Made by a program: the position numbers and the translations under genes. From an uncultured Candidatus Saccharibacteria bacterium (GTDB lineage: Bacteria; Patescibacteriota; Minisyncoccia; Minisyncoccales; JAGGXC01), in the NCBI GenBank assembly GCA_964470765.1, contig CAYYDV010000004.1, forward strand, positions 1 to 32,264: DNA of 32,264 nt. Reading direction: 5' to 3'. Positions 17,927 through 32,264 of this stretch are shown here, in pieces (within the stretch, counting starts at the first letter, position 1; the number at the start of each line of letters is the position of its first letter). Under the pieces are notes generated by a model. The model made no database searches, was not told where the DNA came from, and saw only the letters and a program-made list of their open reading frames with translations.

Positions 17927-17976
17927 TCTTTAATATTAGGCAACCTTTATTGGTATTTTGTGTTATAATTTAGAAT

Positions 17977-18333: not shown

Positions 18334-18975
18334 ATGAAAAAAGTAATTATTATATTATCAGTCTGCTTTTTAATAACAGTAAGTGCCTCAACAGTAAGCG
18401 CCCAGTTTGATTTTCCAGGCTTAAAACAAATAATCCTTACTGGTATTGATAGAGCTCTAAACAGAATAGACATTATAGAAAGTAAAATAGAAAATAATCC
18501 CCGAATAAGCGACTTAACCAAACAAAGCGTAATTGAGGCCTTAAATATGGTTGAAGAAACCCTGGTATTGTATAAAGATGATGTTGAGAAAGCAGAAACA
18601 TTAAAGGAATTAAGAGCAGCCAATCAGGCAATTATAAAGTACCTTTGGGAAAATAAAGATGTTATTAGAGAAAACATAAGAAAGGCCATTGTTGATATAG
18701 CCAATGAGGCCGTTGAGAAGGCCGAAGAATTCAAAGAAAAAGTTAGACAAGCACTTAAAATATTAAAAGTAGTTTGTCCAGCTGAAAAAGAAACTATTGC
18801 TCAAGTGGAAGCTCAATTAGATCAATTAGAGGAAGAAATAGATATCCTTAAACAAGCAATCAAGTCAAAAGACATTTTAACTATTAGGCGGGAAGTAAAA
18901 GAAATAAGAGAGCTAATTGAAGATATAAGGGATAACTTAGAAAAAATACAAGAATCCTGTTTTGGAGAAGATTAA
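18334..18975 (+). CDS. Secreted helical/coiled-coil protein
   Basis: Signal peptide ending VSA-Q, heptad-rich charged sequence. Confidence 0.75.
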   Translation: MKKVIIILSVCFLITVSASTVSAQFDFPGLKQIILTGIDRALNRIDIIESKIENNPRISDLTKQSVIEALNMVEETLVLYKDDVEKAETLKELRAANQAIIKYLWENKDVIRENIRKAIVDIANEAVEKAEEFKEKVRQALKILKVVCPAEKETIAQVEAQLDQLEEEIDILKQAIKSKDILTIRREVKEIRELIEDIRDNLEKIQESCFGED

Positions 18976-19036
18976 TATTACGCAACGTTTAATTAGTGAA
19001 GTGAAACCGTTAGAGTAGGGAACTGGCGATTTTTTT
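18972..19036 (+). repeat. Half recombination site plus hairpin unit, copy 1
   Basis: Ungapped ~70% match to 19631-19695. Confidence 0.65.
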
Positions 19037-19085
19037 ATCACTGTGATAAAATTATTATAGAGGTATAATAATAAAAAAGTAACCT

Positions 19086-19589
19086 ATGTTAAGAGAATCA
19101 TCTAAAAAACAGAGATTTCAAAAAGGCTTTTCTCTCATAGAATTATCAACTATTGCTATTATTGCGATAGTCTTAATTTCTCTTATTCTTGTTTCGATAA
19201 AACCTAACCAAGCTAAGAGCCGAGACACAAAAAGAGTTGCAGAGATAAATACCATCAGAACAGCCCTTCAACTTTTCTATATGGATAATGGTCGTTATCC
19301 AATAGAAGAAGATGGATATTGGTGTTCAATAGAGGCTGGGGATTCACAAGATATTCCGCCTGTCTGCGAAAATCTCCCAACTGATTTAGAACCTTACCTT
19401 CCTGAAATACCAGGAGACCCTCTTTATGATAGAGGATGGGAGCCACCAGGCAAAAGATTTTCCTATCAATATACATCTACTTCTTCTGGTGCAGGCTATA
19501 AGCTTTACGCTGACTTCGAAATTGGAGATTCTTCTTATGAAGTTTCTTCTTTTCTTGGCAAAGATATAATTTATACTCCACCAGAGTAA
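19086..19589 (+). CDS. Type IV pilin / GspG-like prepilin
   Basis: KG|FSLIEL cleavage motif, hydrophobic helix, KSRDTKR...ALQLFY.DNGRYP, IPGDP. Confidence 0.85.
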   Translation: MLRESSKKQRFQKGFSLIELSTIAIIAIVLISLILVSIKPNQAKSRDTKRVAEINTIRTALQLFYMDNGRYPIEEDGYWCSIEAGDSQDIPPVCENLPTDLEPYLPEIPGDPLYDRGWEPPGKRFSYQYTSTSSGAGYKLYADFEIGDSSYEVSSFLGKDIIYTPPE

Positions 19590-19630
19590 TTCATCTGCAT
19601 TTATGAGCTTCAGGAGCCAAAGGAAGTATT

Positions 19631-19695
19631 ATAATATTGTGCGACATTTAATCAGACGTTAGAAACTGTTAGGGTAGAGAACTAACAGTTTTTTT
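19631..19695 (+). repeat. Half recombination site plus hairpin unit, copy 2
   Basis: ATAATA-TTGTGCGAC-18 nt-AACTGTTAG-N9-CTAACAGTT-T run. Confidence 0.7.
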
Positions 19696-20650
19696 ATTCT
19701 TTTAAGTTCTTGCCACTATGAAATTTACGATGAACATCTCTTAGACGCTTATTTGTTACATGAGTATATATTTGAGTTGTAACAATATTTCTGTGACCTA
19801 AAAACTCTTGAATGGTTCTTAAATCAACTCCTTGGGTTAATAAATCCGTCGCATAAGAATGGCGGATCGTATGCGGAGTAGTAAATATCGGCACTCCGGC
19901 CAAGATAGCATATTTTTTAACAATTCTTTCCATGGAACGGGAGGTCAAGCGGTTCTCAATATCTTTTTTGGCTCGGTAGTGGATAAAGAGAGCTTTTTCT
20001 TTGTCTTTTCGGGTCTCCAGATACTTCTTAATCCAGGATAAAGCTCTTTCTGAAAAATATACTGTCCGGGGAGTATTTCCTTTACCAATAATTCCTAGCT
20101 CTAAATCTTTTTTATCTTTAATGTTGGTAAACTGTTCTTTGTTGAGAGCTACCAATTCAGCTATTCTCAAACCGGTTGAGAATAAGGTTTCTAAGATAGC
20201 TCGGTCTCTTAGGCCAGTTTGGGTCTTAGTGTTAGGAGCCAGTAGAAGCTTTTGAATTTGCTCTAAATTGAGGAATTTGACTGTTTTTTCCTTTTTAGCG
20301 TCTTTCGGGAGGCTTATCTTATCTGAGGCGATACATTGGACGTCTTTGGCTGTAAAGTAGCTCAGAAGGGCTCTGAGAGCGATTAAATAGTAGTTCTGAG
20401 TGACCTTTTTAAGGGGCTTTCCCTTATTATCCTGAAAACGGGATAAGAAGAGTCGATATTGCCAAATATCATCAGCCGTCAATTCATTAGGCTTCAAATC
20501 TTCTTTTTTGGTCTTTTTCAACCAATAGATAAACTTCTCAAGATAGCGTCTGTAATTTTCCTGAGTCTTGCTAGCAAGGCCTTTTTCAACCTCACAATAA
20601 TCTAGAAAATCAGGAATATGTTTTATAATTGATTTGTTTGATTTTTCCAT
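19694..20650 (-). CDS. XerC/XerD-like tyrosine recombinase
   Basis: Intact catalytic set: TGLRIAEL (R), GKG (K), HTIRH (HxxR), LGH, TTQIYTHV (Y); N-terminal SAM-like domain; no IntI-type insertion apparent. Confidence 0.95.
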   Translation of the reverse strand: MEKSNKSIIKHIPDFLDYCEVEKGLASKTQENYRRYLEKFIYWLKKTKKEDLKPNELTADDIWQYRLFLSRFQDNKGKPLKKVTQNYYLIALRALLSYFTAKDVQCIASDKISLPKDAKKEKTVKFLNLEQIQKLLLAPNTKTQTGLRDRAILETLFSTGLRIAELVALNKEQFTNIKDKKDLELGIIGKGNTPRTVYFSERALSWIKKYLETRKDKEKALFIHYRAKKDIENRLTSRSMERIVKKYAILAGVPIFTTPHTIRHSYATDLLTQGVDLRTIQEFLGHRNIVTTQIYTHVTNKRLRDVHRKFHSGKNLKE

Positions 20651-20733
20651 AAAAATTCTTATATTTTAGCTTATACTCAAAAAAGAGTATTTTGAGGGGA
20701 GCTCTCTAGGCTTATTTATTTGTTCTTAACAAT

Positions 20734-20757
20734 GTCGCTTTACCTACATTGTGCGAC
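20734..20757. other. Candidate chromosomal dif-like site B
   Basis: GTCGCTTTA-CCTACA-TTGTGCGAC, 84 bp upstream of the recombinase start. Confidence 0.7.
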
Positions 20758-20770
20758 TATATCTACCTTA

Positions 20771-20799
20771 ATAATATACTAGGCAAAAGGCCCAGTCAA
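20771..20799 (-). promoter_or_regulatory. Putative recombinase promoter
   Basis: TTGACT-17-TATTAT on - strand, directly upstream of site B. Confidence 0.55.
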
Positions 20800-20884
20800 G
20801 TGGAAAATTACTACTCCCCTATAAAGATGTATAATAAAAAAGAAGGGCTCAAGATTAATCTTTAATTGCCCTTTTTTGTAATAA

Positions 20885-21265
20885 TTATGCTTTGCAACTC
20901 CATAATCCTTTCTTTTTAGGATTGCTAAAGATCTCTGCAGAAACTTCCATAAACTTAGGAACTTTCCATTGCCATCCGTGAGACGGACTAGTAATCGCTA
21001 TTAAAGCTTTCCCTACTTTTTCTGCAAGATTATTTAAAACTTCTGAAGTTATCTTTGGTTTGTCAAAGCGTTTCACAATTTCTACGATAATTTCGTCTCC
21101 TAGTCCTAATTTCATCATGTCTGGAAGGAAAAGAACAGTAATTTCTTCTGGTGTCGTTTCTAATTCTTCTGTGCCAACTATTTTTTTCTTAATAGCTTCA
21201 TACATTTCATTCAATTTTTCTTCGCTTACTTCGCTTGGTAAGCAATAAACTTTTGCTACAGTTAT
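20885..21265 (-). CDS. Hypothetical protein, probable ATA start
   Basis: TTGACA-18-TATAAT (21316-21287), GGAGG-N7-ATA at 21265, in frame with the track ORF. Confidence 0.7.
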   Translation of the reverse strand: MTVAKVYCLPSEVSEEKLNEMYEAIKKKIVGTEELETTPEEITVLFLPDMMKLGLGDEIIVEIVKRFDKPKITSEVLNNLAEKVGKALIAITSPSHGWQWKVPKFMEVSAEIFSNPKKKGLWSCKA

Positions 21266-21449
21266 TTTAACACCTCCAATAATTAAATTATATCACACCT
21301 ATCCCCTACTTGTCAATGTATGGAGAATCTTCGAAATAAAAAAATAAACGGGTATACTGAGATACCCTTAGAATGTGCCAAATGAAGCTGGTTGAATTAA
21401 AAGCCATACATAACCATGAATCCCTCTTTGTCAATATCATACCGAGCAA

Positions 21450-21580
21450 ATAAAAATGGCCAGCATGATAAATAATAACTGGCCCTGGCCGCCGACTCTC
21501 CTAATCGTACTGATTGTTGTAGGCGTGCCCTAAACGCCTCGTTATTCGGTTCTATCCAACCTACAGTCGGTCGTTGACTT
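21450..21580 (-). ncRNA. Candidate structured non-coding RNA
   Basis: GC-richer stretch with nested stems (CCGACT/AGTCGG, AGGCGT/ACGCCT, AATC/GATT), terminator-like GGCCAG/CTGGCC plus T-rich tail, upstream TTGACT. Confidence 0.35.
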
Positions 21581-21618
21581 TAGCTTATTAAAATTAAAAG
21601 ATAAAGTCAAGCTTTATT

Positions 21619-21689
21619 AAAAAACCGTTAGTCCCCCGCCCTAACGGTTGTTGTCTCCCAATTTAGACGCTTTTTATTAGTTATCTAGT
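21619..21689 (-). repeat. Half site plus hairpin unit, copy 3; includes a 29-bp repeat shared with 22742
   Basis: CTAATA-AAAAGCGTC-16 nt-AACCGTTAG-N9-CTAACGGTT-T run on - strand. Confidence 0.65.
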
Positions 21690-22162
21690 TTCCTCTCTAG
21701 GGTCATCTGATAATCCTTGAAACCATATCTTCTATAGAATTTTAACCCTAGCTTGTTTTGAGCAGCAGCTGTGGTAGAAATATAGTTTACTTTATTCTTT
21801 TTACACCACCTTATAAAGTCTTTTATTAGCGCAGCTCCTAAACCCTTACGTCTAAACTTCTTTTCTATAAACATATTTTCTGCTTCAGCATATTTTGCCT
21901 TTTTTCTATAAAATATTCTTTCTTGTATTCCACCGCACATATAACCAATTACTTTTCCTTCTTTTTCTACTACTTCTGCAAAGCTATCCTTTTTTGTTAT
22001 CTTTTTTCTGAAGTATTTCTCCCCTACTTTCCCATATGTCCATTTCATATTTAAACTTTTATCGTATTGCTTATACTCTCTTTTGAATAATTCAAAGTTA
22101 AGCCTCTGAATGTCTTTTAAGTCTTTAACTGTTGCTTTTCTAATTTTAAAATTATTTTTCAT
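21677..22162 (-). CDS. GNAT acetyltransferase
   Basis: IRKAT..DL, FRRKGLG motif A, N..GLKFYRRYGF. Confidence 0.92.
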   Translation of the reverse strand: MKNNFKIRKATVKDLKDIQRLNFELFKREYKQYDKSLNMKWTYGKVGEKYFRKKITKKDSFAEVVEKEGKVIGYMCGGIQERIFYRKKAKYAEAENMFIEKKFRRKGLGAALIKDFIRWCKKNKVNYISTTAAAQNKLGLKFYRRYGFKDYQMTLERKLDN

Positions 22163-22187
22163 AGTTTTAGGCACTTTTTATACTAAA

Positions 22188-22715
22188 TTATTGCTTACTA
22201 ATTTTCTTACTAAGCCTCTGACATTCTTTTATAATATCTTCTCTCTTCTCAGCGTCATTGGCATCTTTTACTCCTTTAGCTGAGATAATATCGATTAAGT
22301 TTAGTTGTAACAGTTTTATTATCTGTTTTAAATAATCAATAGCTATTCCTTGTGATTCATCGGCTTCTTCTCCGGTTAGCTCCCCTGCTATAATAAGCAC
22401 AACTCCTTTCCCTTTTAACATTTCATCGTGATAAGGATGTAATCTGTCTATGAAGTTAAGCATATGAGGAGTAATCATATCATACCAGACTGGAGAGCTA
22501 AGAATAATAATATCTGAATCCTTTACTTTAGGAAAAATTTCTTTCATATCATCGTTATCTTGCATTCTCTGACCTGAACCATTAGCTAAGGCAATATTCT
22601 TTTCCCTAAGCAAAATTAGCTCTGTTTCAGCATCTTCGGTGCTTTCTAAAACTTTACGGAGCATGAATTCACAATTTCCCTTTCTTGGGCTTCCGCAGAT
22701 ACCTATAATTTTCAT
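22188..22715 (-). CDS. Flavodoxin-family / NADPH-dependent FMN reductase
   Basis: IIGICGSPRKGN, SSPVWY, FIDR, LKGK; lacks the Fe-S cysteine cluster of iron-sulfur flavoproteins. Confidence 0.88.
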   Translation of the reverse strand: MKIIGICGSPRKGNCEFMLRKVLESTEDAETELILLREKNIALANGSGQRMQDNDDMKEIFPKVKDSDIIILSSPVWYDMITPHMLNFIDRLHPYHDEMLKGKGVVLIIAGELTGEEADESQGIAIDYLKQIIKLLQLNLIDIISAKGVKDANDAEKREDIIKECQRLSKKISKQ

Positions 22716-22741
22716 ATATTTTATTATACCAAAAGATTATT

Positions 22742-22770
22742 ATTTAGACGATTTTTATTAATTATCTAGT
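22742..22770. repeat. 29-bp direct repeat of 21661-21689
   Basis: ATTTAGACG[C/A]TTTTTATTA[G/A]TTATCTAGT, 27/29 identical. Confidence 0.75.
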
Positions 22771-23397
22771 CTTCTTTAATTTCCCAAATATTACTAAAAC
22801 ATCATCATCAATAGCTTTAACTTTGAAAGCTTTATTAAATAACCTTCTTGGATGTTTTATATTTGGTCCTTTGGTTGGGTCATGAATCCAAACGTTATTC
22901 TTATCTATCTTCAAGATTGTAACAAAATGACCGGCAAAAGATTTCTTTTTCCTTTTCCAGAGGATATTAGTATCTACGCAGGGTACGACAATATATCCTT
23001 TTCTGAGATATCCTTCAAAGTCTCTTAAAGAATGCTTACGAACCTCGAAGATTTTCTCCTTTTTTACCTTTCTATCAAAATATTCTTCTACATCAAGGTT
23101 GATATTTTTTATCAACTTTTCATAATTCTTACCAAAAGCCCTTTTATAAAGATTTATTAGCTTTTTTCTTTCTATAGGGATATCCTTATTTGCATAAGCT
23201 TTTACGCTTAATCCAAGATTTCTTAAAACAACTGCTGCATGACTTGGAGCAACCCACTTTCCTTTCTTTCTCTTCATCTTCTTACTCATCTGTTTAAGGG
23301 TGAATTTCTTTTCAGGAAAAAAATAGCCCAATACCATTACCATATTGGATTGCATGCATTGGTTTTCTTGGTTTTTAACAAAAGGCAATTTCGACAT
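22762..23397 (-). CDS. Peptidase C39-like protein
   Basis: Q...QC near N-terminus, GHFV, IHDP triad pattern. Confidence 0.78.
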   Translation of the reverse strand: MSKLPFVKNQENQCMQSNMVMVLGYFFPEKKFTLKQMSKKMKRKKGKWVAPSHAAVVLRNLGLSVKAYANKDIPIERKKLINLYKRAFGKNYEKLIKNINLDVEEYFDRKVKKEKIFEVRKHSLRDFEGYLRKGYIVVPCVDTNILWKRKKKSFAGHFVTILKIDKNNVWIHDPTKGPNIKHPRRLFNKAFKVKAIDDDVLVIFGKLKKTR

Positions 23398-23399
23398 GA

Positions 23400-23978
23400 T
23401 TATTTACATTTGAACATTTTTCCATGACCAGGAATAATATAATCTGCTCTTTCTAATATTTTCTTACGGCTTTTAATAAGCTTCTCCATATCTACTTCTT
23501 CAGGATGAGCATCATCTTTCTTCTGTATATCTATCTTCTGTTCTTCATTATCTATCCACCAAAAAACATCTCCAGCAATAACATAATTTCCCTCTTGGGT
23601 GAAAACTTCTAATGAACAGTGTTCTGGGCAATGACCTGGTGTTTGAATTATTTCCAAGCCTGTGCCTGGAACTTCATTGTCATGTTCAACTTGATTGTCG
23701 CCATCATAAATCTCATATACAGTTAAAACTTTAGCATTCTCAAAGATGCCAGCTAAGAGAGTGTGATCGGTATGATTATGGGTCAATAGAACAAAATCTA
23801 TGTCAGAGGTTTTAAGCTTATTTTTCTCTAATGCTTCTAATAATTTTTTTCTATTACAACCCGGGTCAATTATTATATTCTTTCCTTTGCTTTGGACAAA
23901 AGTAACAGTAGAGTTTGCTAACCAACCTCCTTCTATTTCTTTTGCATAACCCTCTATTAGGATTTTTACTTTAGCCAT
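23400..23978 (-). CDS. Metallo-beta-lactamase fold hydrolase
   Basis: IIDPG, THNHTDH, TPGH, IAGD, IPGHG. Confidence 0.92.
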   Translation of the reverse strand: MAKVKILIEGYAKEIEGGWLANSTVTFVQSKGKNIIIDPGCNRKKLLEALEKNKLKTSDIDFVLLTHNHTDHTLLAGIFENAKVLTVYEIYDGDNQVEHDNEVPGTGLEIIQTPGHCPEHCSLEVFTQEGNYVIAGDVFWWIDNEEQKIDIQKKDDAHPEEVDMEKLIKSRKKILERADYIIPGHGKMFKCK

Positions 23979-24588
23979 GTTTAGAAATAATCGAATTGAC
24001 TTTTTCCAAGAGTTTTTCCTTTTCGCCGATATTGTAGTGTCCTTCTATCTTTCCAATTAGTTTCCCATTTTTGAAAAATAACAAAGCTGGGAGCTCTTTT
24101 ACTTCATACTTCTTTAAAAATCGATCGTTTTCTTGCACCTTAACTTTTCTATATAAAGCATCAATATCTTTGAATAAATCTTTAATAGGTATTGAATGAA
24201 GTAGACACTTTATTGAGTCATCAGTAAACAATTCAGCAATTGCTAGCTTAGTTGACTGAATTACATGAATATCGAATTCTTCTGTAGAAATTAAAAAAGG
24301 AGGAAATACAGAAACTGCCCCATATCTGTCAACAAATAAATCAGAGATTTTTCTTGGGTCTTTATCAATTTCCTTTTTAATTCTCTTAAATTCTTCTTCG
24401 TCTTTAGCTACCCTTATTGCACCCACGGAACATGATTCTTCGCATTTGCCACAACTAATACATTTTTCATTATCAATTGCTATTGTTTTTTGTTTCTCAT
24501 CCCAATAAAATGCTCCTATCGGGCAAACTTTTATACCGTTACAATCTTTAGAATTATCGCAAATTTTGAAATTTATTAAAACTGACAT
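23971..24588 (-). CDS. 4Fe-4S ferredoxin fused to a thioredoxin-like domain
   Basis: CDNSKDC...CP and CISCGKCEESC; C-terminal ELPALLFFKNGKLIGKIEG. Confidence 0.82.
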   Translation of the reverse strand: MSVLINFKICDNSKDCNGIKVCPIGAFYWDEKQKTIAIDNEKCISCGKCEESCSVGAIRVAKDEEEFKRIKKEIDKDPRKISDLFVDRYGAVSVFPPFLISTEEFDIHVIQSTKLAIAELFTDDSIKCLLHSIPIKDLFKDIDALYRKVKVQENDRFLKKYEVKELPALLFFKNGKLIGKIEGHYNIGEKEKLLEKVNSIISKHG

Positions 24589-24633
24589 ATGTAATTCTTT
24601 ATATTATTTTATTATTATTTTACCAGAAAATTA

Positions 24634-24999
24634 TTACTTTAGCGATTTGCCGTCTTTATCTACAATCTTGGCCTGTTCAGGATACCAAGCTGGATTTTCA
24701 ACGGTAATGTATTCAAAATTACGTCCTTCAGCAGCAAATCTAGTTCCAGGAGGAAAATCAACACAATCACCTTCTTCTACATCAAAAACCTCGTCATTAC
24801 GGAATACTCTTCCCTTCCCTTTTGTTACAAATAACATCCAATGAAGCTTAGTTTCACAAAGAAATGTTCCTTCTTTGTCTGGAGTTCTACCATTGAGAGT
24901 CATATGGTTTATTTCCAGTTGTTTATCTGGAGCTGTATACTTCTTAATTACTTTATCTCCTTTATCTATAATTTTTGCTTGGTTTTTTCTAATTAACAT
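24634..24999 (-). CDS. Cupin-fold protein
   Basis: FVTKGKG, VEEGDCVDFPPG, PAW. Confidence 0.75.
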   Translation of the reverse strand: MLIRKNQAKIIDKGDKVIKKYTAPDKQLEINHMTLNGRTPDKEGTFLCETKLHWMLFVTKGKGRVFRNDEVFDVEEGDCVDFPPGTRFAAEGRNFEYITVENPAWYPEQAKIVDKDGKSLK

Positions 25000-25013
25000 A
25001 TTTTTGTTATTTA

Positions 25014-25037
25014 GACGCTTTTTACACCTTGTGCGAC
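25014..25037. other. dif-like site C
   Basis: GACGCTTTT-TACACC-TTGTGCGAC. Confidence 0.7.
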
Positions 25038-25067
25038 ATTAGGTTTAAATCCAGCACCTCTTTTAAT

Positions 25068-26180
25068 TTATTTTTTAACAAATAGGGCTCCAATTCCTCC
25101 TGGATTCCCACGATAATCATTAGATAAATTAAATTCTTCTATTAGTTTATATTCTGGTACTTCTCGGGAAATAGTATGAATAACCCTTTTTGCAAAATGT
25201 TTTTCACTGTCAGTTCCGAATACATATAAACGTTTAACATTAATTTTAAGATCTTTTTTTGCACGATTAACAAAACCCTGAATAGCTTTGCTTCCTTGAG
25301 AAGCTTTAATTGGCATAGCGATTAAAAGAAATCCATAATTAGTAACGGGGCCTAAACGACTCCACATCTCTGCTGGGATTGTGTTCCTCCATTTGCTTTG
25401 TTTTAATCCTTCATCATAATGTTTTATAAAATCTTCAATGTGCTTAATGATCTCGTTGACTTCTTGACGCATTTTATTACGTAATGAGGTAAGTTTAACT
25501 TCGGAAGCAACCGCATGCACTTCTCTTATAAAAGTTCCCGAAAAAAATCCGCGTTCATCAATTTTGTTGTATCTCTCCAGAATTCTAAGTATTTTTTCGT
25601 TTTTATCAACTTCCGGCTCTAATACATAATCATTAAATAAATCTATTAATTCTGGTTTTTGGTTTTTTAGTATTTTGTTAGAAGTAAATAAGACAGAGGC
25701 TTCAAGGTATGATTCAGGGATAACCTTTTTATTCTTTGGGAAAAAAGATTTTTTTAAAAAACAATAAAGCGCGTTAATAAAATTAATTTTCTGATCTTCT
25801 AATGGTCTAATTCTTATTACTATTTCGTTATCGTTTAAAAAATCTTTTCGATCTCCATATTGAACCCATTCGATTTCCATTGGCTTTAACCAACCGGAGG
25901 GAAACTCGTTTTTAAGTTTTAAAACTGCTGAATTAACATTACCTCTAATATCTGCCTTAATAGCTTGTTTGGTCAGTCTCTTAAATGCTCTTTTTTTTAC
26001 AAGAGGGAGGTATATCTTCGATTTAAAGATCTCAATATTTGGAATTGTATTTACTAAAAGATTGAAAATTCCATAAATGGCAAGAAGGCCAACTAAAAAA
26101 TATGTAATTATTCTGGGCGAATCTTTAATAATTTGACATAAAATTTCTGAATTCAAATACGAACAAACTAAATCAATCAT
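25068..26180 (-). CDS. Hypothetical protein with N-terminal TM
   Basis: 370 aa ORF overlapping the upstream small gene; no family recognised. Confidence 0.8.
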   Translation of the reverse strand: MIDLVCSYLNSEILCQIIKDSPRIITYFLVGLLAIYGIFNLLVNTIPNIEIFKSKIYLPLVKKRAFKRLTKQAIKADIRGNVNSAVLKLKNEFPSGWLKPMEIEWVQYGDRKDFLNDNEIVIRIRPLEDQKINFINALYCFLKKSFFPKNKKVIPESYLEASVLFTSNKILKNQKPELIDLFNDYVLEPEVDKNEKILRILERYNKIDERGFFSGTFIREVHAVASEVKLTSLRNKMRQEVNEIIKHIEDFIKHYDEGLKQSKWRNTIPAEMWSRLGPVTNYGFLLIAMPIKASQGSKAIQGFVNRAKKDLKINVKRLYVFGTDSEKHFAKRVIHTISREVPEYKLIEEFNLSNDYRGNPGGIGALFVKK

Positions 26181-26409
26181 GATGTAATTTAATTAAACAT
26201 TTAACGTTAGTGCATACGAAACAAATATCTTGCCCACAAGGGAATAAGGCTTGTAGGTTTTTAAAGGAGACTTTATTACCGCAGAATTTACAAAGAATCT
26301 TTCCTTCCTTTATTTGTTCATATACCCCTAATGATTTTAAGTAAGGAATTAAATCTTGATCATTAACTGCTTTTATTTTAGTTTTTTCTTTACGAAAGAA
26401 ATTAAACAT
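26173..26409 (-). CDS. Small putative zinc-binding protein
   Basis: CKFCG ... CTNVKC cysteine pattern. Confidence 0.7.
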   Translation of the reverse strand: MFNFFRKEKTKIKAVNDQDLIPYLKSLGVYEQIKEGKILCKFCGNKVSFKNLQALFPCGQDICFVCTNVKCLIKLHHD

Positions 26410-26498
26410 TATACTTGTTTAAGTGAATTAAGTGCCTTTTTCTTCTACTTTTAGAGTATTCTTATTTTTAATAATGGTCAACTAAGAGATCTGTTAAT

Positions 26499-26568
26499 GT
26501 CGCACAAGATGTCTTAAACGTCCCACAACGCATCTTGTGCGAACCTCCCACAATATGTCTTGTGCGAC
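26499..26568. repeat. Three tandem dif-like sites D1-D3
   Basis: GTCGCACAA-GATGTC-TTAAACGTC; GTCCCACAA-CGCATC-TTGTGCGAA; CTCCCACAA-TATGTC-TTGTGCGAC. Confidence 0.8.
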
Positions 26569-26576
26569 GTTTAATA

Positions 26577-26606
26577 TTGACAAACAGGAAGTTAATATGG
26601 TACAAT
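26577..26606 (+). promoter_or_regulatory. Sigma70-type promoter abutting site D3
   Basis: TTGACA-18-TACAAT with TG. Confidence 0.7.
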
Positions 26607-26687
26607 ATGAGTGCAAGAGAATAAGAAATTATTCTTTCGCCTCCCAAGTAATCTTGGGAAAAAACTAGATATAGAAGGTGATAAGAA

Positions 26688-26894
26688 ATGGTAGATGAAG
26701 GTTATTATAGTAAGTTGACGCTTGAACAGCAAGAAAAACTTGATAAAGAAACAACGGATATATTCCTAAAAATAGGAGAAGGAGTCAAAGGATTATTAGA
26801 AATGAAGAAAAAAGGAGTTCCTTTTAATCTTGTTCTTGGTGCTGCAGGTCCATCGCTTAGAGATGTAGTGAAAACACTTTTTCCAGAAGATTAA
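26688..26894 (+). CDS. 68-aa hypothetical protein
   Basis: Own promoter, AAGGTGA SD-like motif, downstream TGATCAAGGAG/CTCCTTGATCA hairpin. Confidence 0.65.
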   Translation: MVDEGYYSKLTLEQQEKLDKETTDIFLKIGEGVKGLLEMKKKGVPFNLVLGAAGPSLRDVVKTLFPED

Positions 26895-26985
26895 AAACTA
26901 CTACGACTTCTTAAAAACAATGTGATCAAGGAGATAATATTCTATATATCCCATCTCTCCTCCTTGATCACTTTTCTATTTAAAG

Positions 26986-27040
26986 GTCCTACAACATAGA
27001 TGGCAGGACCTAACACTATTCAAAATATGTCTTGTGAGAC
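26986..27040. repeat. dif-like sites E and F
   Basis: GTCCTACAA-CATAGA-TGGCAGGAC and TATTCAAAA-TATGTC-TTGTGAGAC. Confidence 0.75.
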
Positions 27041-27092
27041 TCTGGAAAAGAAGAAGCCTTATGATATAAATACCATAAGACATGAGCTTGAT

Positions 27093-27470
27093 TTAACCGT
27101 ATGCCTTAAAGAAGCTACGATAAAATGGTTTACACCATACTGAAACTGATATCAGTTTGTGCTTCTGGAAGAAGTTTACAAGTGTCAGGTCGATCAGATC
27201 ACTAAGCTTTCCTTGCTCTTCAAGAGAAGGATCAAATGGCTTACCTCGATCATACTCGTCTTCGCCTGCTGTATAACGAATCTCAATCTGAATATCCTTT
27301 TCTCCCCTAGTATGAAGAACGGGTGCAGAGATCGTAAGAGCTACATCGTTTAATCCTTCTAAATCAAACCCTTTCTCCACTGCTGAAATAAGTTTTGGTT
27401 CTAGCAGTGAAATCTTACTCATAATCACGTCTCTCACATGAGACGCGATGATCATATAAATCTGTGGTAT
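27093..27470 (-). CDS. Hypothetical protein, probable ATA start (MPQIYMII...)
   Basis: TTGACA-17-TATAAT (27518-27490), AAGGAGG-N7-ATA in frame with the track ORF. Confidence 0.7.
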   Translation of the reverse strand: MPQIYMIIASHVRDVIMSKISLLEPKLISAVEKGFDLEGLNDVALTISAPVLHTRGEKDIQIEIRYTAGEDEYDRGKPFDPSLEEQGKLSDLIDLTLVNFFQKHKLISVSVWCKPFYRSFFKAYG

Positions 27471-27526
27471 ATTACCACCTCCTTTTAATATTATACACTT
27501 ATATTAATAATTTGTCAATATAAAAC

Positions 27527-27550
27527 AGCTTCAAAGACATATTGGGCGAA
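27527..27550. other. dif-like site G
   Basis: AGCTTCAAA-GACATA-TTGGGCGAA; spacer is the reverse complement of TATGTC. Confidence 0.6.
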
Positions 27551-27590
27551 TCTTTCAAAAAGAATAAATAAAAAAGAAGGATTTAACCTT

Positions 27591-27968
27591 CTATAATAAA
27601 ACAGTATTATTGGGTTCCCAGGCTGGTGCACATATTACAATAAAATCAACATTTCCTCCTCTTGCATTTTTAATGTTCAAAATCTGGTGGTGTTCTTGGG
27701 AATGAATCAATATAACATCTCCCGGAGAAAGAAAATATTCTTTGTCGTTAATATACATCGTTGGCTGCCCTTTAAGTATGTAGTATGTCTCCTCAGCTTC
27801 TGGATGACAATGAGGCGGAGAGGAGCAATTAGGTGGCAAAATAACATAACCAACGCTATGTTTAGTCACCTTCCCTAGATGTTCTGGACGGCCAATCATT
27901 TCATATATGAGCTCACCAGTGGGGTTCTCAATGGGTCTTCCAGCTTTTTTTCTTCTTGTAATGAGCAT
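27591..27968 (-). CDS. Cupin domain protein
   Basis: PHCHPEAEETYYILKG, LSPGD, HHQI, CAPAW. Confidence 0.9.
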   Translation of the reverse strand: MLITRRKKAGRPIENPTGELIYEMIGRPEHLGKVTKHSVGYVILPPNCSSPPHCHPEAEETYYILKGQPTMYINDKEYFLSPGDVILIHSQEHHQILNIKNARGGNVDFIVICAPAWEPNNTVLL

Positions 27969-28015
27969 TCTAAACCTCCTATCTCTTTTTACTTGAAATC
28001 AAGAATTTGTCAACT

Positions 28016-28037
28016 AAAAAAACCGCCTTTTTAGCGA
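28016..28037 (-). repeat. Hairpin repeat R5
   Basis: TCGCTAAAAAGGCGGTTTTTT on - strand, 19/21 to R2/R3. Confidence 0.55.
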
Positions 28038-28053
28038 CTTTTTAAATCTGAGA

Positions 28054-28077
28054 GTCCTGCCATCTATGTTGTGGGAC
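28054..28077. other. dif-like site H
   Basis: GTCCTGCCA-TCTATG-TTGTGGGAC; 23/24 to the reverse complement of site E. Confidence 0.8.
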
Positions 28078-28417
28078 TCCGAAATAAAAAAGATCTTCCG
28101 AAGAAGTGCTGAAAAAGAAAAGAGAGAGGAAGGAGAGAAATCTGTTCTAGATTGAGTTGGAAGCTATTGAGGGAGTTTCTAACCTAGAAGATTTTTCCTT
28201 AACCTCTCTTTAAAAGTGATTGAGTCTATTCCAGTTGGTTGGAAATTGACTACAATTTAATGAACTGTTGAAGGGATGAAAAGAAATGAGATAGAGAAGG
28301 GAGCGAAGGTTCTTGTTCTGCCTTTACTTTCTTACAGAAAGGAAGTGCAATTACCCTTTTAAGGAGACATACGTCTCAAACTTGCCTTCTCTAAAAATTA
28401 TTTCTTAGTTTAGCATT

Positions 28418-28666
28418 CTAGCTGTTTTTTATTTCTTCGTGTATTTCTGTAAAACAAGTATCTGTGAATTTCATGAGTTCTTCTTTTGAGATATTCTCTG
28501 CTTTTAGCTCAGGTTCCTTTACAAGATTACCAATTATTCTTTCTATATTCACCCACTGCTTAATAGTCATTTTTTCTCGTATAATGTATTTAATGAGCTG
28601 TACTGCTATCTTACCTTTTCTTTCCTCGCTTAGTTCTTCGTCATATATTCCGGTTCCAATAACCAA
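28418..28666 (-). CDS. 82-aa hypothetical protein
   Basis: TTGACA-18-TATAAT (28738-28709), AGGAGGTGA SD, TTG start. Confidence 0.7.
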   Translation of the reverse strand: MVIGTGIYDEELSEERKGKIAVQLIKYIIREKMTIKQWVNIERIIGNLVKEPELKAENISKEELMKFTDTCFTEIHEEIKNS

Positions 28667-28766
28667 TTTCTTTCACCTCCTGCGGTTTCTTTCATTCCCT
28701 ACATCTATATTATACCATATTTATTTATGTTTTGTCAAGATAAAACCACCCTTTTTACGAGGCGAC

Positions 28767-28790
28767 GTCTTAGAATCTATGTTGAGCGAA
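28767..28790. other. dif-like site I
   Basis: GTCTTAGAA-TCTATG-TTGAGCGAA. Confidence 0.7.
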
Positions 28791-28918
28791 TCTGTAAAGA
28801 AAAAACCTTTCTTTGACAATCCTTCTATATTATAAATCATTGCTTTAAGTTCTTATTATGATAGTATTAAAGATATTCTAAAAAGGTCAAAAAGATTAAT
28901 TATTAATCATTAAAAAAT

Positions 28919-29755
28919 ATGCCAAATACAATCTTGGGAATTTTAGGAGTAATTTTCTTTATTATTTTAATCTCAATTAAGCAGGTTAATCAGTATCAAA
29001 AGGGAGTTAAGTTTATGCTTGGTAAGTACATTGGATTGATGCCGCCCGGTTGGAGAATAGTCTTGCCCATCATCCAGTCTTATCAAAAAATAGACTTAAG
29101 AGTGAAGGCAGTAGATGTGCCGAATCAGGAGGCGATTACTAAAGATAATATTTCAGTAAGCGTTAACGCGGTTATTTACTATAAGGTTAGCGATGCTGAT
29201 AAGGCAGTTTTAGAAGTAGAAAATTTTCGTTATGCCATTTCTCAGTTAGCCCAAACAACAATGCGGAATGCTGTAGGTCAGGTAGATTTGGATGAGCTTC
29301 TTTCTCAAAGAGATAGAGTTTCGGAAAATATAAGAAATATTATAGATAAAGCTACCGATCCCTGGGGAATTAAAGTTAACAACGTGGAATTAAAAGATAT
29401 AACTCTACCAGAAGAAATGAAAAGAGTGATTGGTAAACAGGCTGAAGCAGAAAGAGAAAAAAGAGCAATAATCATTAAGGCTGAAGGAGAAGTAATTGCT
29501 GCCAACAATCTAGCCAAAGCTGCCAATACTTTATCGCAATCCAGCGGAGCTCTTCATTTGAGAACTCTTCAATCAATTAATGACATAAGCTCTGACCAGT
29601 CAAATACGATTGTTTTTGCTGTACCTTTAGAGATCTTAAGAGCCTTTGAAAGATTGGGAAGTAATTCGCCAGGAGAAAAAGGAATTGTAGGGACGATTGA
29701 AAAATTTGGAAAGAAATTCCTAGAAGAGAAAAAAGAAGATAAGGATAATCAATAA
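28919..29755 (+). CDS. SPFH/band 7 (stomatin-like) protein
   Basis: N-terminal TM, ITKDN, LAQTTMR, WGIKV, QAEAEREKRA. Confidence 0.95.
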   Translation: MPNTILGILGVIFFIILISIKQVNQYQKGVKFMLGKYIGLMPPGWRIVLPIIQSYQKIDLRVKAVDVPNQEAITKDNISVSVNAVIYYKVSDADKAVLEVENFRYAISQLAQTTMRNAVGQVDLDELLSQRDRVSENIRNIIDKATDPWGIKVNNVELKDITLPEEMKRVIGKQAEAEREKRAIIIKAEGEVIAANNLAKAANTLSQSSGALHLRTLQSINDISSDQSNTIVFAVPLEILRAFERLGSNSPGEKGIVGTIEKFGKKFLEEKKEDKDNQ

Positions 29756-29831
29756 AATAATAGAGCAAGAAATACAGAAATTAAAAAGACGGTGGATAAA
29801 AACCAACCCGTCTTTTTTAAAAAACTTAAGT

Positions 29832-29855
29832 GTCTTATCGTCTATGATGTAAGAT
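29832..29855. other. Degenerate dif-like site J
   Basis: GTCTTATCG-TCTATG-ATGTAAGAT. Confidence 0.55.
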
Positions 29856-29883
29856 TCTGGAATAAAAAAAACAGGAGAAAGAA

Positions 29884-30156
29884 TTATATTTTCTTATCTC
29901 CCTTAATTGTCTTTTTGAAGCTTTTATAATCACGGAAACCTGAAATAGCGAATGATAATGTAAAAATTGCTAGTATTCCAAGTAATATTACTGCGATTAA
30001 TATTTTTGTTTCAGATAAATCCCCCTTTAAAGCGGCTTGAGTTGTGAGACCTAACAAGAAAAGAATGGTGATTGTTAGGATAACGGCTATTCTCAGATCG
30101 TAGATATAAAGTGCCTCAAAAAGATTAACTTTCTTTTGCTTTTTTTCTCGTGTCAT
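29884..30156 (-). CDS. Small two-TM membrane protein
   Basis: Two hydrophobic helices; TTGACA-16-TATAAT (30218-30191) and AGGAG SD. Confidence 0.7.
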   Translation of the reverse strand: MTREKKQKKVNLFEALYIYDLRIAVILTITILFLLGLTTQAALKGDLSETKILIAVILLGILAIFTLSFAISGFRDYKSFKKTIKGDKKI

Positions 30157-30226
30157 TTATATATCTCCTAAAAAGAACTACTTTACTTTGATTATAAACA
30201 TTTTTTATTATTTGTCAATACTAAAC

Positions 30227-30250
30227 ATCGTCCAAGACATCCAGGCGTAT
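30227..30250. other. Degenerate dif-like site K
   Basis: ATCGTCCAA-GACATC-CAGGCGTAT; spacer is the reverse complement of the D1 spacer. Confidence 0.55.
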
Positions 30251-30338
30251 TTGGAAATAAAAAAAGGAGATAGAAATCTTTTTTATCTCCCTTGGATAGA
30301 TTGACTTTCTTTAGGTTTTTTTAAAATAAGAGTGCCCG

Positions 30339-30395
30339 AATTCAAGCACAGCGAGAATCAAGGTTCTGCCGAGCGTCAGCGAGGCATGGTTCTTA
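30339..30395 (+). repeat. REP/MITE-like dispersed repeat, copy 3
   Basis: AATTCAAGCACAGCGAGAATCAAGGTTCTGCC...GGCATGGTTCTTA. Confidence 0.7.
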
Positions 30396-30830
30396 TTCAA
30401 CGAATTTATCAAATAGCTTGATAGTTTTTTCTAATTCTGCTTCGGCTTCTTTCTTGTATTCTTCGTCTTTTCTCCATATATCAACAGTAATAGTCAGATA
30501 AGTTTTCTTCCCCGCTAAGAAAAGCGACCTTTCTATTCTTATGTCTTTATCCTCTAATTTTAAAATTCGGTTTCGGTGAATTATTATTGTTCCGATAACC
30601 TGATTAAGTTTCTCGTCTATATTCTCTCTGTTAATAAGGAAAAGCCCTATTTCGCTGTCTTCTCCTATAATTTCGGTTTTAAAGTATAAGCAGCCGTTTT
30701 TCTTCCATTTTTTTACTACCCATTGAATATTTTCAATTTCTTCGACATGTTTAGTTTCTAAAGAACGTATTTTTGCCGAATTTAAATCTGCCCTTTCCAT
30801 CGTAGACATAATCATTTCTATAAAACCCAT
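30393..30830 (-). CDS. Hypothetical protein
   Basis: GGAGG SD before ATG (MGFIEM...). Confidence 0.7.
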   Translation of the reverse strand: MGFIEMIMSTMERADLNSAKIRSLETKHVEEIENIQWVVKKWKKNGCLYFKTEIIGEDSEIGLFLINRENIDEKLNQVIGTIIIHRNRILKLEDKDIRIERSLFLAGKKTYLTITVDIWRKDEEYKKEAEAELEKTIKLFDKFVE

Positions 30831-30889
30831 TTTTAGCCTCCAATAATACACTAAAATAGATTAGATTATCTGTCAACGGCGCACCGGCG

Positions 30890-30903
30890 CGGCAGGACCT
30901 AAC
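30890..30903. other. Half site L
   Basis: GGCAGGACCTAAC identical to 27002-27014 (right arm of E). Confidence 0.55.
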
Positions 30904-30963
30904 GATTTTACATTATTAATTAAATGTTTTAATATGTTAATAGGTCTTTATGTGGTGAGGTAA

Positions 30964-31374
30964 ATGGATGATTTATTAAGTTTCAGAGAGAAATTTTTGA
31001 ACAATCCGCCTGACTGTGAAAATCCTGACTGTGAGAATTGCGATACTCCAATGACTCTTGTTAAAGAAGGTATGGTTCTCTCTTCTGAAGAACCTCCTTC
31101 TCTTCTGGGGCATGTTATAATGTTCAGATGTTCTGAGTGTAAAGGCATAAAAACTGCACTTTTTATAACAAAAGCCATAGACCTGAGAAACTTCTCAGGC
31201 CTTTTTTATTGTCGCAGTGTATTTTCGAAACAAAAAAGAGGAAGGACCAGTTGGAACTTCCTACATTTTACTTTTATAATTTCATTACTGTTTTTTCCCG
31301 TTTTTCAGTTTACATCTTTCATCTTTAAGTTGTATGATTCTCATTTTACTTTCAAGATAATCTGGTCCTCTTAA
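30964..31374 (+). CDS. Putative zinc-ribbon protein; C-terminal part probably read-through
   Basis: CENC...CSEC; ORF runs through a terminator-like hairpin near 31182-31207 and overlaps the opposite gene. Confidence 0.5.
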   Translation: MDDLLSFREKFLNNPPDCENPDCENCDTPMTLVKEGMVLSSEEPPSLLGHVIMFRCSECKGIKTALFITKAIDLRNFSGLFYCRSVFSKQKRGRTSWNFLHFTFIISLLFFPVFQFTSFIFKLYDSHFTFKIIWSS

Positions 31375-31491
31375 TTCCTTATCTAGTTCTACATCTATTG
31401 CATAGATCTTTTTCTTTGTTTCTTCATCCGAAACAGCCCTCATATCAGCCTCTACTTGTGAAAAGGGTATTTTTTCGAAAATATGCTTCAT
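31285..31491 (-). CDS. Small hypothetical protein
   Basis: AGGAGG SD before ATG (MKHIFEK...). Confidence 0.6.
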   Translation of the reverse strand: MKHIFEKIPFSQVEADMRAVSDEETKKKIYAIDVELDKELRGPDYLESKMRIIQLKDERCKLKNGKKQ

Positions 31492-31632
31492 TTCCTTTCC
31501 TCCTATATTTTTTGTATATAAAGTACTATTTTGAGTATATTTAAATATAATATATTTTTGATGAAGAGATGTCAATAGAAAAAACCGCAGTTTTGTCTTT
31601 TTTCATTGAGAGAAGCCTTCCCGAACATAGCA

Positions 31633-32127
31633 TTAAAGACCACTTTCATTTATATAATCTTCAAAAATCACCGGGATAATAACCTTATTTATCTCGCTTC
31701 CATCCTTAGCTGAATCTTCAAAAACTTCTACGATACCTTTTTTAGCATAAGGTCTAATATAGTATACATTCTTAGAAAAAGAATGTAATTCACCCAACCA
31801 GCCTTTAGCAGTAGTAAAAGTATTGGCTAAAATTTCACCACTGTCATCTTTTATCTTTATCCTGGTATTACCCTCAAAAAAGTTTGATTTACCAGAAACT
31901 TTAACCGGGCTAGTTATTTTTTGATGAGGAAAAGGAGAAACCACCTCTAAAAATTCATTGCTGGTTTTTATCTTTTTCTCTGGAATCTCTGTTTCTGACT
32001 CTTTGACCTCTTCTTTCTCCATCTCTGAATACTGCCAATAAGTAAATCCTCCAACTAAAAGAGCTAGAAGGAGAATAAGGGTGATAGCTAGAGGGGCAGA
32101 TATTCCTCTGTTGAGATTTTTGATTAT
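31633..32127 (-). CDS. Membrane-anchored Gmad2-like immunoglobulin-domain protein, probable ATA start
   Basis: ITSPVKVSG, FFEGN, EDSAKDGS; in-frame upstream NRGISAPLAITLILLLALLVGGFTYWQY has no ATG after the preceding stop. Confidence 0.75.
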   Translation of the reverse strand: MIKNLNRGISAPLAITLILLLALLVGGFTYWQYSEMEKEEVKESETEIPEKKIKTSNEFLEVVSPFPHQKITSPVKVSGKSNFFEGNTRIKIKDDSGEILANTFTTAKGWLGELHSFSKNVYYIRPYAKKGIVEVFEDSAKDGSEINKVIIPVIFEDYINESGL

Positions 32128-32264
32128 AATGTTTTTTTTGATTAATTAGTTATTGACCTTTTTATTATTCTACCACAAAATCCTAATAAAAGAATGTTCG
32201 GATGGCTTCCTTCCTTCTTTATCTATTTCGCCTTTTAATATTCTTGTGCTTGAGATTGGTTTTC

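Follow-up and report, generated by a model that had tools for sequence, protein, structure and literature searches.

Gene modules bounded by variants of a probable dif site at the replication terminus of a Parcubacteria-group genome

The 32,264-nt stretch analyzed here (the window) is the whole of one contig (C4; CAYYDV010000004.1) of a 712-kb draft genome in 86 contigs, 87% complete, and holds the replication terminus of a small genome of the Parcubacteria group, within the candidate phyla radiation. It encodes a single Xer-type tyrosine recombinase, xer, next to a probable dif site (site B), and on both sides of this pair short gene modules are separated by variants of B. These sites are restricted to the locus, several are mosaics of one another, and gene content turns over between genomes with breakpoints at the sites. 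We consider it reasonably probable that the locus is a dif-module island, built at the terminus by the host's own Xer, in which sites pair according to spacer class and decay with distance from the xer–dif unit. Xer would be the maker of the junctions; this role, and the present function of any site except B, we infer from sequence. An earlier note on this DNA had described nine consecutive intergenic regions at 25014–30903, each with a variant of site B (sites C to L), and had proposed a shuffling platform analogous to an integron.

The xer gene and the probable dif site

The xer product matches the Pfam family Phage_integrase (1.8e-37) and has a SAM-like N domain. Its top NCBIfam models, XerD and XerC, both scored below their equivalog cut-offs, which places the protein in the Xer group without a subtype. 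Among PDB entries the best match was Escherichia coli XerD (1a0p), in a full-length alignment with the R..K..HxxR..H..Y motifs aligned; the catalytic set characteristic of Xer-group enzymes of chromosome dimer resolution appears intact. Integron integrase models fell far below their cut-offs (TIGR02249, 92.1 bits against 265, split over two stretches; NF011946, 54.7 bits against 435), and alignment to IntI4 (2a3v) was confined to residues 235–301. The XerS model NF003462 reached 108 bits against a cut-off of 267, over residues 143–309 only, and the protein is thus not a XerS member. No other match to PF00589 was found in the genome. Full-length orthologues with 57 to 83% identity occur in 39 of the 41 genomes searched, mostly one per genome; FtsK-family genes gave two matches in the genome under study. 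Because it is the sole recombinase of its kind found, is XerD-like and has orthologues in 39 of 41 genomes, Xer is assigned as the predicted housekeeping recombinase of a single-recombinase system. The view that the enzyme is of the Xer type and not an IntI is therefore upheld. Many public records with a close orthologue of this Parcubacteria-type xer are automatically labeled 'uncultured Candidatus Saccharibacteria' or 'uncultured Gammaproteobacteria', labels that look unreliable.

Site B sits 84 bp upstream of xer and occupies the same place in relatives: a strict pattern recovers it in 13 of 14 larger relatives' loci, and all 20 xer-bearing loci have it at up to five mismatches. (Genomes of relatives carry labels beginning with G, and their xer loci labels beginning with L.) As is typical of dif, it is a conserved single-copy site at the terminus, with inverted arms around a spacer in the 6- to 8-bp range. 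Within the window, cumulative GC skew reaches its peak near 20.7 kb, at B, and in 19 of 20 loci the skew changes sign at B, from positive on the xer side to negative beyond. Although xer lies on the minus strand, it keeps the positive sign of the left-hand side in 19 of 20 loci; therefore, the flip at B is not merely a gene-strand effect. In the complete genome G036 (639,534 bases), the global skew maximum at 29,586 is 82 bp from B (29,668), and the minimum at 294,731 lies near dnaA (304 kb). Site B is thus very probably dif, because it is conserved beside xer, stands at the skew switch in the window and lies 82 bp from the whole-genome skew maximum of G036.

The DNA to the right of B, which holds a promoter-like site for xer, is conserved with several relatives. 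B falls in the first 30 bases of the predicted xer transcript, that is, in its leader; from this position, Xer bound at dif may repress its own gene. At the other end of the gene stands a conserved half site, A, whose sequence block (TTAATA-TTGTGCGAC-ATTTAAT) is also found downstream of xer in most relatives. Two decayed A-type half sites farther left (17930 and 18972) lie on the same strand as A and end the two gene groups directly left of it.

In G010 and G087, both of genus g8, the xer–dif unit is placed between 60-bp inverted repeats that hold an A-type half site (A and A'). Such repeats occupy 3959–4019 and 5306–5366 of locus L028, and 3903–3962 and 5973–6033 of locus L036. A comparable inverted A-like site lies 355 bp past B in G003. 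The xer–dif unit itself may be invertible or formerly mobile.

Site variants around the xer–dif unit

The module boundaries are, as we read them, 24-bp cores composed of two 9-bp arms and a 6-bp spacer (Table 1), and re-reading bore out the positions previously given for all of the sites C to L. The conserved right arm, TTGTGCGAC, occurs in exact form five times in the 712-kb genome, and all five copies are at 19637–26568 of this contig. At up to one mismatch there are 11 copies in 17.9–31.0 kb and 33 in the other ~700 kb (0.62 expected in the locus; Poisson P 7e-11); two of the 11 (19848 and 30042) are inside genes and are possibly there by chance. Three of the four genomic copies of a further arm, GGCAGGAC, are at this locus. 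The pattern used in the earlier note, at up to three mismatches, matched four places (B, D2, D3, and H) where 0.01 would be expected; none of 100 shuffles reached four. The possibility, raised as a refutation, that the motif is a genome-wide operator is answered by these counts (exact arm 5 of 5 here, one-mismatch arm 11 of 44), and a scan with position weight matrices (PWMs) agrees.

These matrices were built from relatives only, one from 22 A-type sites and one from 13 B sites. The B-type matrix scored B at 43.3, C at 19.5, D1 at 14.9, and D2 at 12.6 bits, with the best background at 12.7 bits. Apart from A and B themselves, the best matches in the genome were C and D1 for the B type and the half sites at 18972 and 17930 for the A type. 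Site quality thus drops with distance from the xer–dif unit on both sides, through 32.7, 16.4, and 16.0 bits from A leftward and through 43.3, 19.5, and 14.9 bits from B rightward. C repeats B in direct orientation at a distance of 4.3 kb. Between them, half sites at 21661 and 22742 share a 15-mer that equals the outer arm and flank of C, within a repeat (D9; 34 nt, 88%) that pairs the 21661 region with 22742–22775. Together with the A-type half sites left of xer, these make the array wider than 25014–30903.

We compared the nine intergenic regions, at 18 arm positions each, with 1500 random windows of equal length from the genome. Regions C, D, E/F, H, and I, five of the nine, stood above background (P 0.0007–0.007). 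Their interpretation as variants of the site beside the recombinase was borne out; the claim that all nine regions carry such a site stood for these five and did not extend, on arms, to G, J, K, and L. In the J, K, and L regions, the top-scoring 24-mer is not the site that had been named. We therefore count five regions as solid, three as plausible remnants (G, J, and K), which retain a spacer and the initial bases of an arm, and one as a half site (L).

Spacers fall into few classes. GATGTC or TATGTC is the spacer of D1, D3, and F, and G and K have it in inverted form; TCTATG is that of H, I, and J, with E carrying the inverted form; B has CCTACA and A a TTAATA-like spacer. With core patterns picked after the sites were known, ATGTCTT has six copies in the 1856 bp of the nine regions (0.33 expected; one, at 27077, is off the listed sites) against 125 elsewhere, and TCTATG[AT]TG has four copies in the regions against five elsewhere in the genome. 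The two classes of the earlier note were thus confirmed, and spacer classes recur in other genomes: TCTATG/CATAGA (here E, H, I, and J) in G010, G087, and G106, in the first two beside the same arm as in H; GATGCG/CGCATC (here D2) in G069, G106, L069, and L070; TATGTC (here D3 and F) in G056; and GGTGTA/TACACC (here C) in G056 and G115. TATACC, one base off the spacer of C, is present in G087, G069, G115, and L070. Several spacer classes are common to genomes of other families.

Several sites are mosaics. E and H are alike over the 24-bp core (23 of 24), and their flanks past the GTCCTGCCA arm differ; E and L agree in that arm and in the flank outside it, and their spacers differ; C resembles the half sites at 21661 and 22742 in its outer arm and flank and not farther inward. 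In each case similarity stops at about the arm–spacer border, and tyrosine recombinases cut at this border. Right-type arms stand on either side of the spacer in D2 and D3 and in several sites of G010 and G106. Such an arrangement is exactly the product that recombination between two inverted asymmetric sites would give. Orientation mostly alternates from C through K. Two further sequence blocks were considered and rejected as site components. A right flank (TCTGGAAATAAAAAA) common to F, H, I, J, and K corresponds to the T-run side of terminators that belong to minus-strand genes, and the block GTTTAATATTGACAAA has similar −35 contexts on other contigs.

Table 1. Sites, genes, and modules of the window, in order of position. 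aa, amino acids; arms, matching arm positions in the random-window comparison.
Feature	Position	Strand	Evidence or remark
Decayed A-type half site TTAATATTAGGCAACCTTTATTGG, after PRPP-synthase-like gene	17930..17953	+	A-type PWM, 16.0 bits, 3rd best genome-wide
Decayed A-type half site TTAATATTACGCAACGTTTAATTA, 3' end of 213-aa gene	18972..18995	+	A-type PWM, 16.4 bits, 2nd best genome-wide
Site A, conserved half site ATAATA-TTGTGCGAC-ATTTAAT, 3' end of xer	19631..19654	+	A-type PWM, 32.7 bits
xer, single Xer-type tyrosine recombinase, 318 aa	19694..20650	-	Pfam, NCBIfam, PDB alignment
Site B, probable dif, GTCGCTTTA-CCTACA-TTGTGCGAC	20734..20757	+	Conservation, GC skew
Promoter-like site for xer, TTGACT-17-TATTAT	20771..20799	-	10/12 match
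Half site, left-type arm and flank, AAAAAGCGTCTAAAT on minus strand, end of GNAT gene	21661..21675	-	Repeat D9
Half site, second copy, one mismatch, end of C39-like gene	22742..22756	-	Repeat D9
Site C, GACGCTTTT-TACACC-TTGTGCGAC, B-like	25014..25037	+	B-type PWM, 19.5 bits, 2nd best genome-wide; arms 13/18, P 0.003
Module, 370-aa and 78-aa genes, no known family, between C (+) and D1 (-)	25068..26409	-	No Pfam, NCBIfam, PHROG, or PADLOC match
Sites D1 (26499-26522), D2 (26520-26543), D3 (26545-26568), abutting	26499..26568	D1 -, D2 +, D3 +	Arms 17/18, P 0.0007
Module, 68-aa gene	26688..26894	+	11/12 promoter 10 bp after D3
Site E, inverted near-copy of H (23/24)	26986..27009	-	Arms 14/18, P 0.0007; inverted repeat I1, 39 nt, 85%
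Site F, TATTCAAAA-TATGTC-TTGTGAGAC; only right arm and spacer retained	27017..27040	+	Sequence reading
Module, 120-aa gene with terminator	27093..27455	-	12/12 promoter
Site G, decayed, spacer TATGTC on minus strand	27527..27550	-	39 nt 77% similar to D3 and promoter (I3); ATGTCTT core
Module, cupin gene, 125 aa	27591..27968	-	Pfam Cupin_2, 7.9e-15
Site H, GTCCTGCCA-TCTATG-TTGTGGGAC	28054..28077	+	Arms 15/18, P 0.0007
Module, 82-aa gene and conserved non-coding element 28294-28391	28418..28666	-	12/12 promoter
Site I, GTCTTAGAA-TCTATG-TTGAGCGAA	28767..28790	+	Arms 13/18, P 0.007
Module, SPFH/band-7 gene, 278 aa	28919..29755	+	Pfam Band_7, 4.4e-40
Site J, decayed, GTCTTATCG-TCTATG-ATGTAAGAT	29832..29855	+	TCTATG[AT]TG core; 48 nt 71% similar to H region (D4)
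Module, 90-aa membrane-like gene	29884..30156	-	12/12 promoter
Site K, decayed	30227..30250	-	30 nt 87% similar to D3 and promoter (I6)
Module, 152-aa gene, no known family	30393..30851	-	No Pfam, NCBIfam, PHROG, or PADLOC match
Half site L, GGCAGGAC-CTAAC, identical to E arm and outer flank	30891..30903	+	13-nt identity GGCAGGACCTAAC

Turnover between relatives and competing explanations

Ten of the 14 relatives' loci examined first have a 135-aa gene within ~100–450 bp of B, followed by gltX; two loci have a different small gene in place of the 135-aa gene. In G010, G056, and G069, unrelated DNA (13.6 kb, ~12 kb, and 0.4 kb, respectively) stands between B and the conserved genes, with B at one end, an inverted site abutting the conserved gene at the other, and further sites between. 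Compared with the empty site of the ten loci, these three thus hold DNA inserted at dif and flanked by dif and a dif-like site, the arrangement of integrative mobile elements exploiting Xer (IMEX). Identical pairs of sites flank modules of G010. In the window, the end of the contig is reached before the end of the island; the 135-aa gene and gltX, the usual neighbors after B, are on contig C40, whose first 850 bases contain no dif-like site.

Turnover of gene content beyond B between relatives, with breakpoints at the sites, is seen in two pairs of genomes, each from one genus. G036 and G106 are 83% identical in DNA between the xer stop codon and the final base of B, with nothing in common beyond it; G010 and G087 share only the segment from A to 70 bp past B, and their modules differ on both sides. 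Among 80 further public loci, 14 have at least four extra arms within 10 kb on one side, against ~0.5 expected from the background rate of the genome under study. G036 has a large array on the A side of its xer–dif unit: 13 of its 44 one-mismatch arms are within 17 kb around xer (27.7–44.5 kb), seven of them at 39.2–44.5 kb, on the A side.

Only three of about 24 open reading frames of the island (20.8–32.3 kb) have a homologue near xer elsewhere (an MBL-fold, an SPFH, and a Gmad2 gene), in blastp and tblastn searches of 20 and then 100 relatives' loci. By these searches the island genes are rare accessory genes. The MBL-fold gene (74% amino acid identity) is on the opposite side of xer in G069 and L070, the small families c30 and c34 are on different sides of xer in different genomes, and a module of families c31 and c32 is at differing distances from B in G010 and G087.

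A mechanism consistent with these data would start from a conserved unit at the terminus, made up of half site A, xer, and dif in the xer leader. Accessory DNA would gather on both sides of this unit as modules of one to a few genes, split by Xer-site variants. Xer would bind the conserved right arm together with a weaker second arm, and strands would be exchanged at the arm–spacer borders between sites with a common 6-bp spacer. Recombination of an island site with a site on an incoming circle, another replicon, or another copy of the chromosome would add DNA; a second event at another compatible pair would remove or swap it, and inverted pairs would flip the segment between them. Which sites pair would depend on the few recurrent spacer classes, and sites far from the unit, no longer selected, would decay.

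Several results weigh against an active island of this kind. On arms, G (10 of 18, P 0.49) and J, K, and L (10, 10, and 8 of 18; P 0.47, 0.70, and 1.0) are at background, so that four of the nine sites have decayed too far to be considered working parts of the proposed shuffling platform, and the P values for spacers depend on patterns chosen post hoc. The native flank right of B, with the xer promoter, is intact, so no DNA can have been inserted precisely at B in the window after that flank became established. No module of the window recurs with the same sites in the other genomes examined, nor did we find any near-identical module together with its sites. Among 22 JGI metagenome contigs with a homologue of the 120-aa protein, none has an arm (up to one mismatch) beside the gene, and two have scattered one-mismatch arms at a background-like level; these loci have no bearing on mobility, because their hosts may have other dif sequences. 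Population data were contigs of four sequencing runs (two samples from one study; depth ~4–8), compared over 18500–32264. They reproduce the assembled order across D to H and across J to L. Circles, excision, or inversion did not appear: the junctions listed for these contigs include no such event and no joint at any site, a result that is uninformative on rare excision, since contigs at this depth lose rare forms. The joints and loose ends that were listed are inside genes or in the GC-rich segment 30330–30400 and probably come from related organisms. A second recombinase may have been missed, because the genome is an incomplete draft. In the closest studied system, the xrs cassettes of Acinetobacter plasmids, experiments gave no excision, and only recombination or fusion between molecules was seen (PMC11705084).

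One rival explanation is that the array is a fossil: a few old insertions or duplications at the terminus, produced by Xer or through illegitimate recombination nearby, would have left the sites behind as scars, only B would still work, and the accessory DNA would be slowly decaying. The fall in similarity on both sides of the unit (32.7 to 16.0 bits from A, 43.3 to 14.9 bits from B), the background-level arms of G, J, K, and L, and the single junction state in the contigs of the four runs would all follow from it. It accounts poorly for E and H being identical at 23 of 24 positions despite differing flanks, for the near-perfect arms of D2, D3, and H, for the identical site pairs around modules of G010, for spacer classes common to several families, and for the complete turnover of modules between species of one genus, and we rate it unlikely. 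The fossil explanation and the dif-module island differ only on present activity, on which the contigs of the four runs do not separate them.

Another explanation would make the sites operators that bind Xer or another protein to control adjoining strong promoters, so that the locus would hold a clustered regulon. The −35 boxes of consensus promoters indeed lie 8–45 bp downstream of D3, G, K, H, I, and L, and B, just downstream of the predicted xer start, is placed to allow autoregulation. However, C, E, F, and J are between gene ends or co-oriented genes with no adjoining promoter, distance and orientation to promoters vary, the motif is absent from the rest of the genome, homology between genomes ends where the sites stand, and mosaic half sites (E/H/L and C/21661/22742) would be unexpected of operators; this explanation appears quite improbable. 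We hold it to be no more probable that Xer flips the inverted pairs C/D1, E/H, and F/G as a shufflon-like switch for phase variation. The mostly alternating orientation, the near-perfect inverted repeats E and H 1044 bp apart, and the A/A' repeats around xer–dif in G010 and G087 fit such a switch, but the segments are whole genes with their own promoters and terminators, which could flip without obvious effect, and the contigs of the four runs have them in a single orientation. Extremely improbable, finally, is a true integron or a chance similarity within AT-rich intergenic DNA. Small unrelated genes are arrayed beside a tyrosine recombinase gene, as in an integron, but the integrase models are far below cut-off (92 against 265 and 55 against 435 bits), and 24-bp cores with 6-bp spacers, mixed orientation, and a promoter for each module do not fit one; chance is excluded for the main sites by the arm counts, the shuffles, and the random windows.

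The dif-module island therefore remains our preferred interpretation. A wider proposal, which we regard as rather doubtful, is that one housekeeping Xer and a few group-wide spacer classes constitute a general system of module exchange at the terminus in the Parcubacteria group, by which modules would enter, leave, flip, and move between genomes through the main port for accessory genes, with a self-regulating xer–dif unit at its center.

Known systems and module contents

Integrons bring together small genes, most of them unknown, next to the gene for a tyrosine recombinase, and have a high turnover of gene content. The present locus is like them in all of these respects and unlike them in having no IntI, no attC (judged by anatomy), and no attI/Pc, in its self-promoted modules, and in their mixed orientation. 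The integron analogy of the earlier note thus held insofar as it stated that IntI and an attC-like folded site are absent; it is otherwise loose, given that there is no dedicated integrase, no common promoter, and no uniform orientation.

In layout and presumed mechanism the locus appears closest to the pdif/dif modules of Acinetobacter, and more like these and IMEX arrays than like an integron. Acinetobacter chromosomes and plasmids have been described as carrying 'dif module islands' (PMC12907356), and their sites were bound and cleaved at the bench, with pairing dependent on site sequence (PMC11705084). Common to both are several modules in a row, short and accessory, bounded by Xer-site variants, often in alternating orientation and in multi-module arrays (PMC11705084, PMC12907356); common as well are the absence of an integrase of their own, one better-kept arm, and a central region that decides pairing (PMC11705084), the last presumed here from the spacer classes. 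Unlike the Acinetobacter modules, which depend on XerC and XerD, those described here have one Xer, adjoin a real dif at the terminus and xer itself, carry no resistance genes or insertion sequences, and belong to an uncultivated bacterium of the candidate phyla radiation.

With IMEX the locus shares foreign DNA at dif, placed between dif itself and a degenerate dif-like site, one arm of which may be absent, stacking in arrays, and use of the host Xer (PMC5357621). Unlike IMEX, its modules are 0.4–4 kb and have no replication, phage, or transfer genes, and it has several spacer classes, both orientations, and arrays on both sides of xer–dif. Single recombinases with a linked dif are known as XerS/difSL in streptococci and lactococci (PMC2731167, PMC5357621), and Legionella has a single-recombinase XerL/dif system whose site was revealed by a dif mimic in the mobile element LME-1 (PMC9765430). 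The likeness to XerS/difSL is one of layout, dif beside the recombinase gene, and not of membership: the protein here is not XerS and is closest to XerD by sequence, and arms and spacer differ.

The literature search, outside of which most subscription journals lay, found no description of a dif site or Xer system in bacteria of the candidate phyla radiation or Patescibacteria, and no dif modules outside Acinetobacter. The suggestion of novelty consequently stands for the lineage and not for the kind, which is already known from the Acinetobacter islands (PMC12907356). What is new is the variant and the lineage; in contrast to Acinetobacter, no identical module was found in two replicons, and the sites and their presumed activity are read from the DNA alone.

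For a large group of uncultivated bacteria, the locus provides a dif candidate, GTCGCTTTA-CCTACA-TTGTGCGAC, together with a single Xer, which should aid placement of the terminus in draft genomes. Module arrays bounded by Xer sites are thus not peculiar to Acinetobacter resistance plasmids and are also present at the chromosomal dif of very distant bacteria, where their site classes recur between families. To our knowledge, Parcubacteria-group bacteria have few classical mobile elements. If the sites are active, a housekeeping enzyme would double as gene-acquisition machinery in genomes with almost no other mobile elements.

The modules contain no recombinase, replication, transfer, phage, or resistance genes and no insertion sequences. 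Between B and C are modules with a 109-aa gene, with GNAT and FMN reductase genes, and with C39-like, MBL-fold, ferredoxin-thioredoxin, and cupin-like genes. Gene orientation in the array is mixed and the modules are self-promoted; σ70 promoters adjoin sites (four with 12/12 and one with 11/12 matches), and most modules have terminators. The 12/12 promoters (21287–21316, 27490–27518, 28709–28738, and 30191–30218) are within 10.8 kb, all on the minus strand and before small genes of no known function. PHROG gave no match for nine of ten proteins tested, nor for any module protein right of B, and PADLOC gave none among the island proteins tested. The 68-, 120-, 82-, 90-, and 152-aa proteins have no family; a pore-forming toxin subunit model of NCBIfam matched the 152-aa protein at 18.8 bits against a cut-off of 360 and was rejected as noise. 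Among 5.8 billion proteins, relatives of the 370-aa protein form 15 clusters and those of the 120-aa protein 42, and none of 300 other genomes of the order encodes a homologue of the latter. SPFH homologues are within 10 kb of xer in two other loci.

The GC-rich segment 30330–30400, between K and the 152-aa gene, holds loose ends at 30339, 30367, 30396, and 30397 and is possibly a small repeat or a variable spot. At 21440–21650, with the 109-aa gene on one side and the GNAT operon's terminator on the other, an ORF-free segment (ORF, open reading frame) is richer in GC than its surroundings, adjoins promoter-like sites, and has no Rfam match at E up to 1. Above gathering thresholds, Rfam recognizes one tRNA in the window and nothing else, and it gave no match for 20650–21700 or 28060–28440. 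The second of these intervals includes the non-coding element of the H–I module (28294–28391), ~100 nt that are 80% identical to 3294–3394 of L066 and whose ends pair with each other. Its hairpin has a paired change between the two sequences (GAGAC/GTCTC and GAACC/GGTTC), and it folds better than shuffles (z −3.2 on the plus and −2.9 on the minus strand). The element may be a new small RNA carried in this module.

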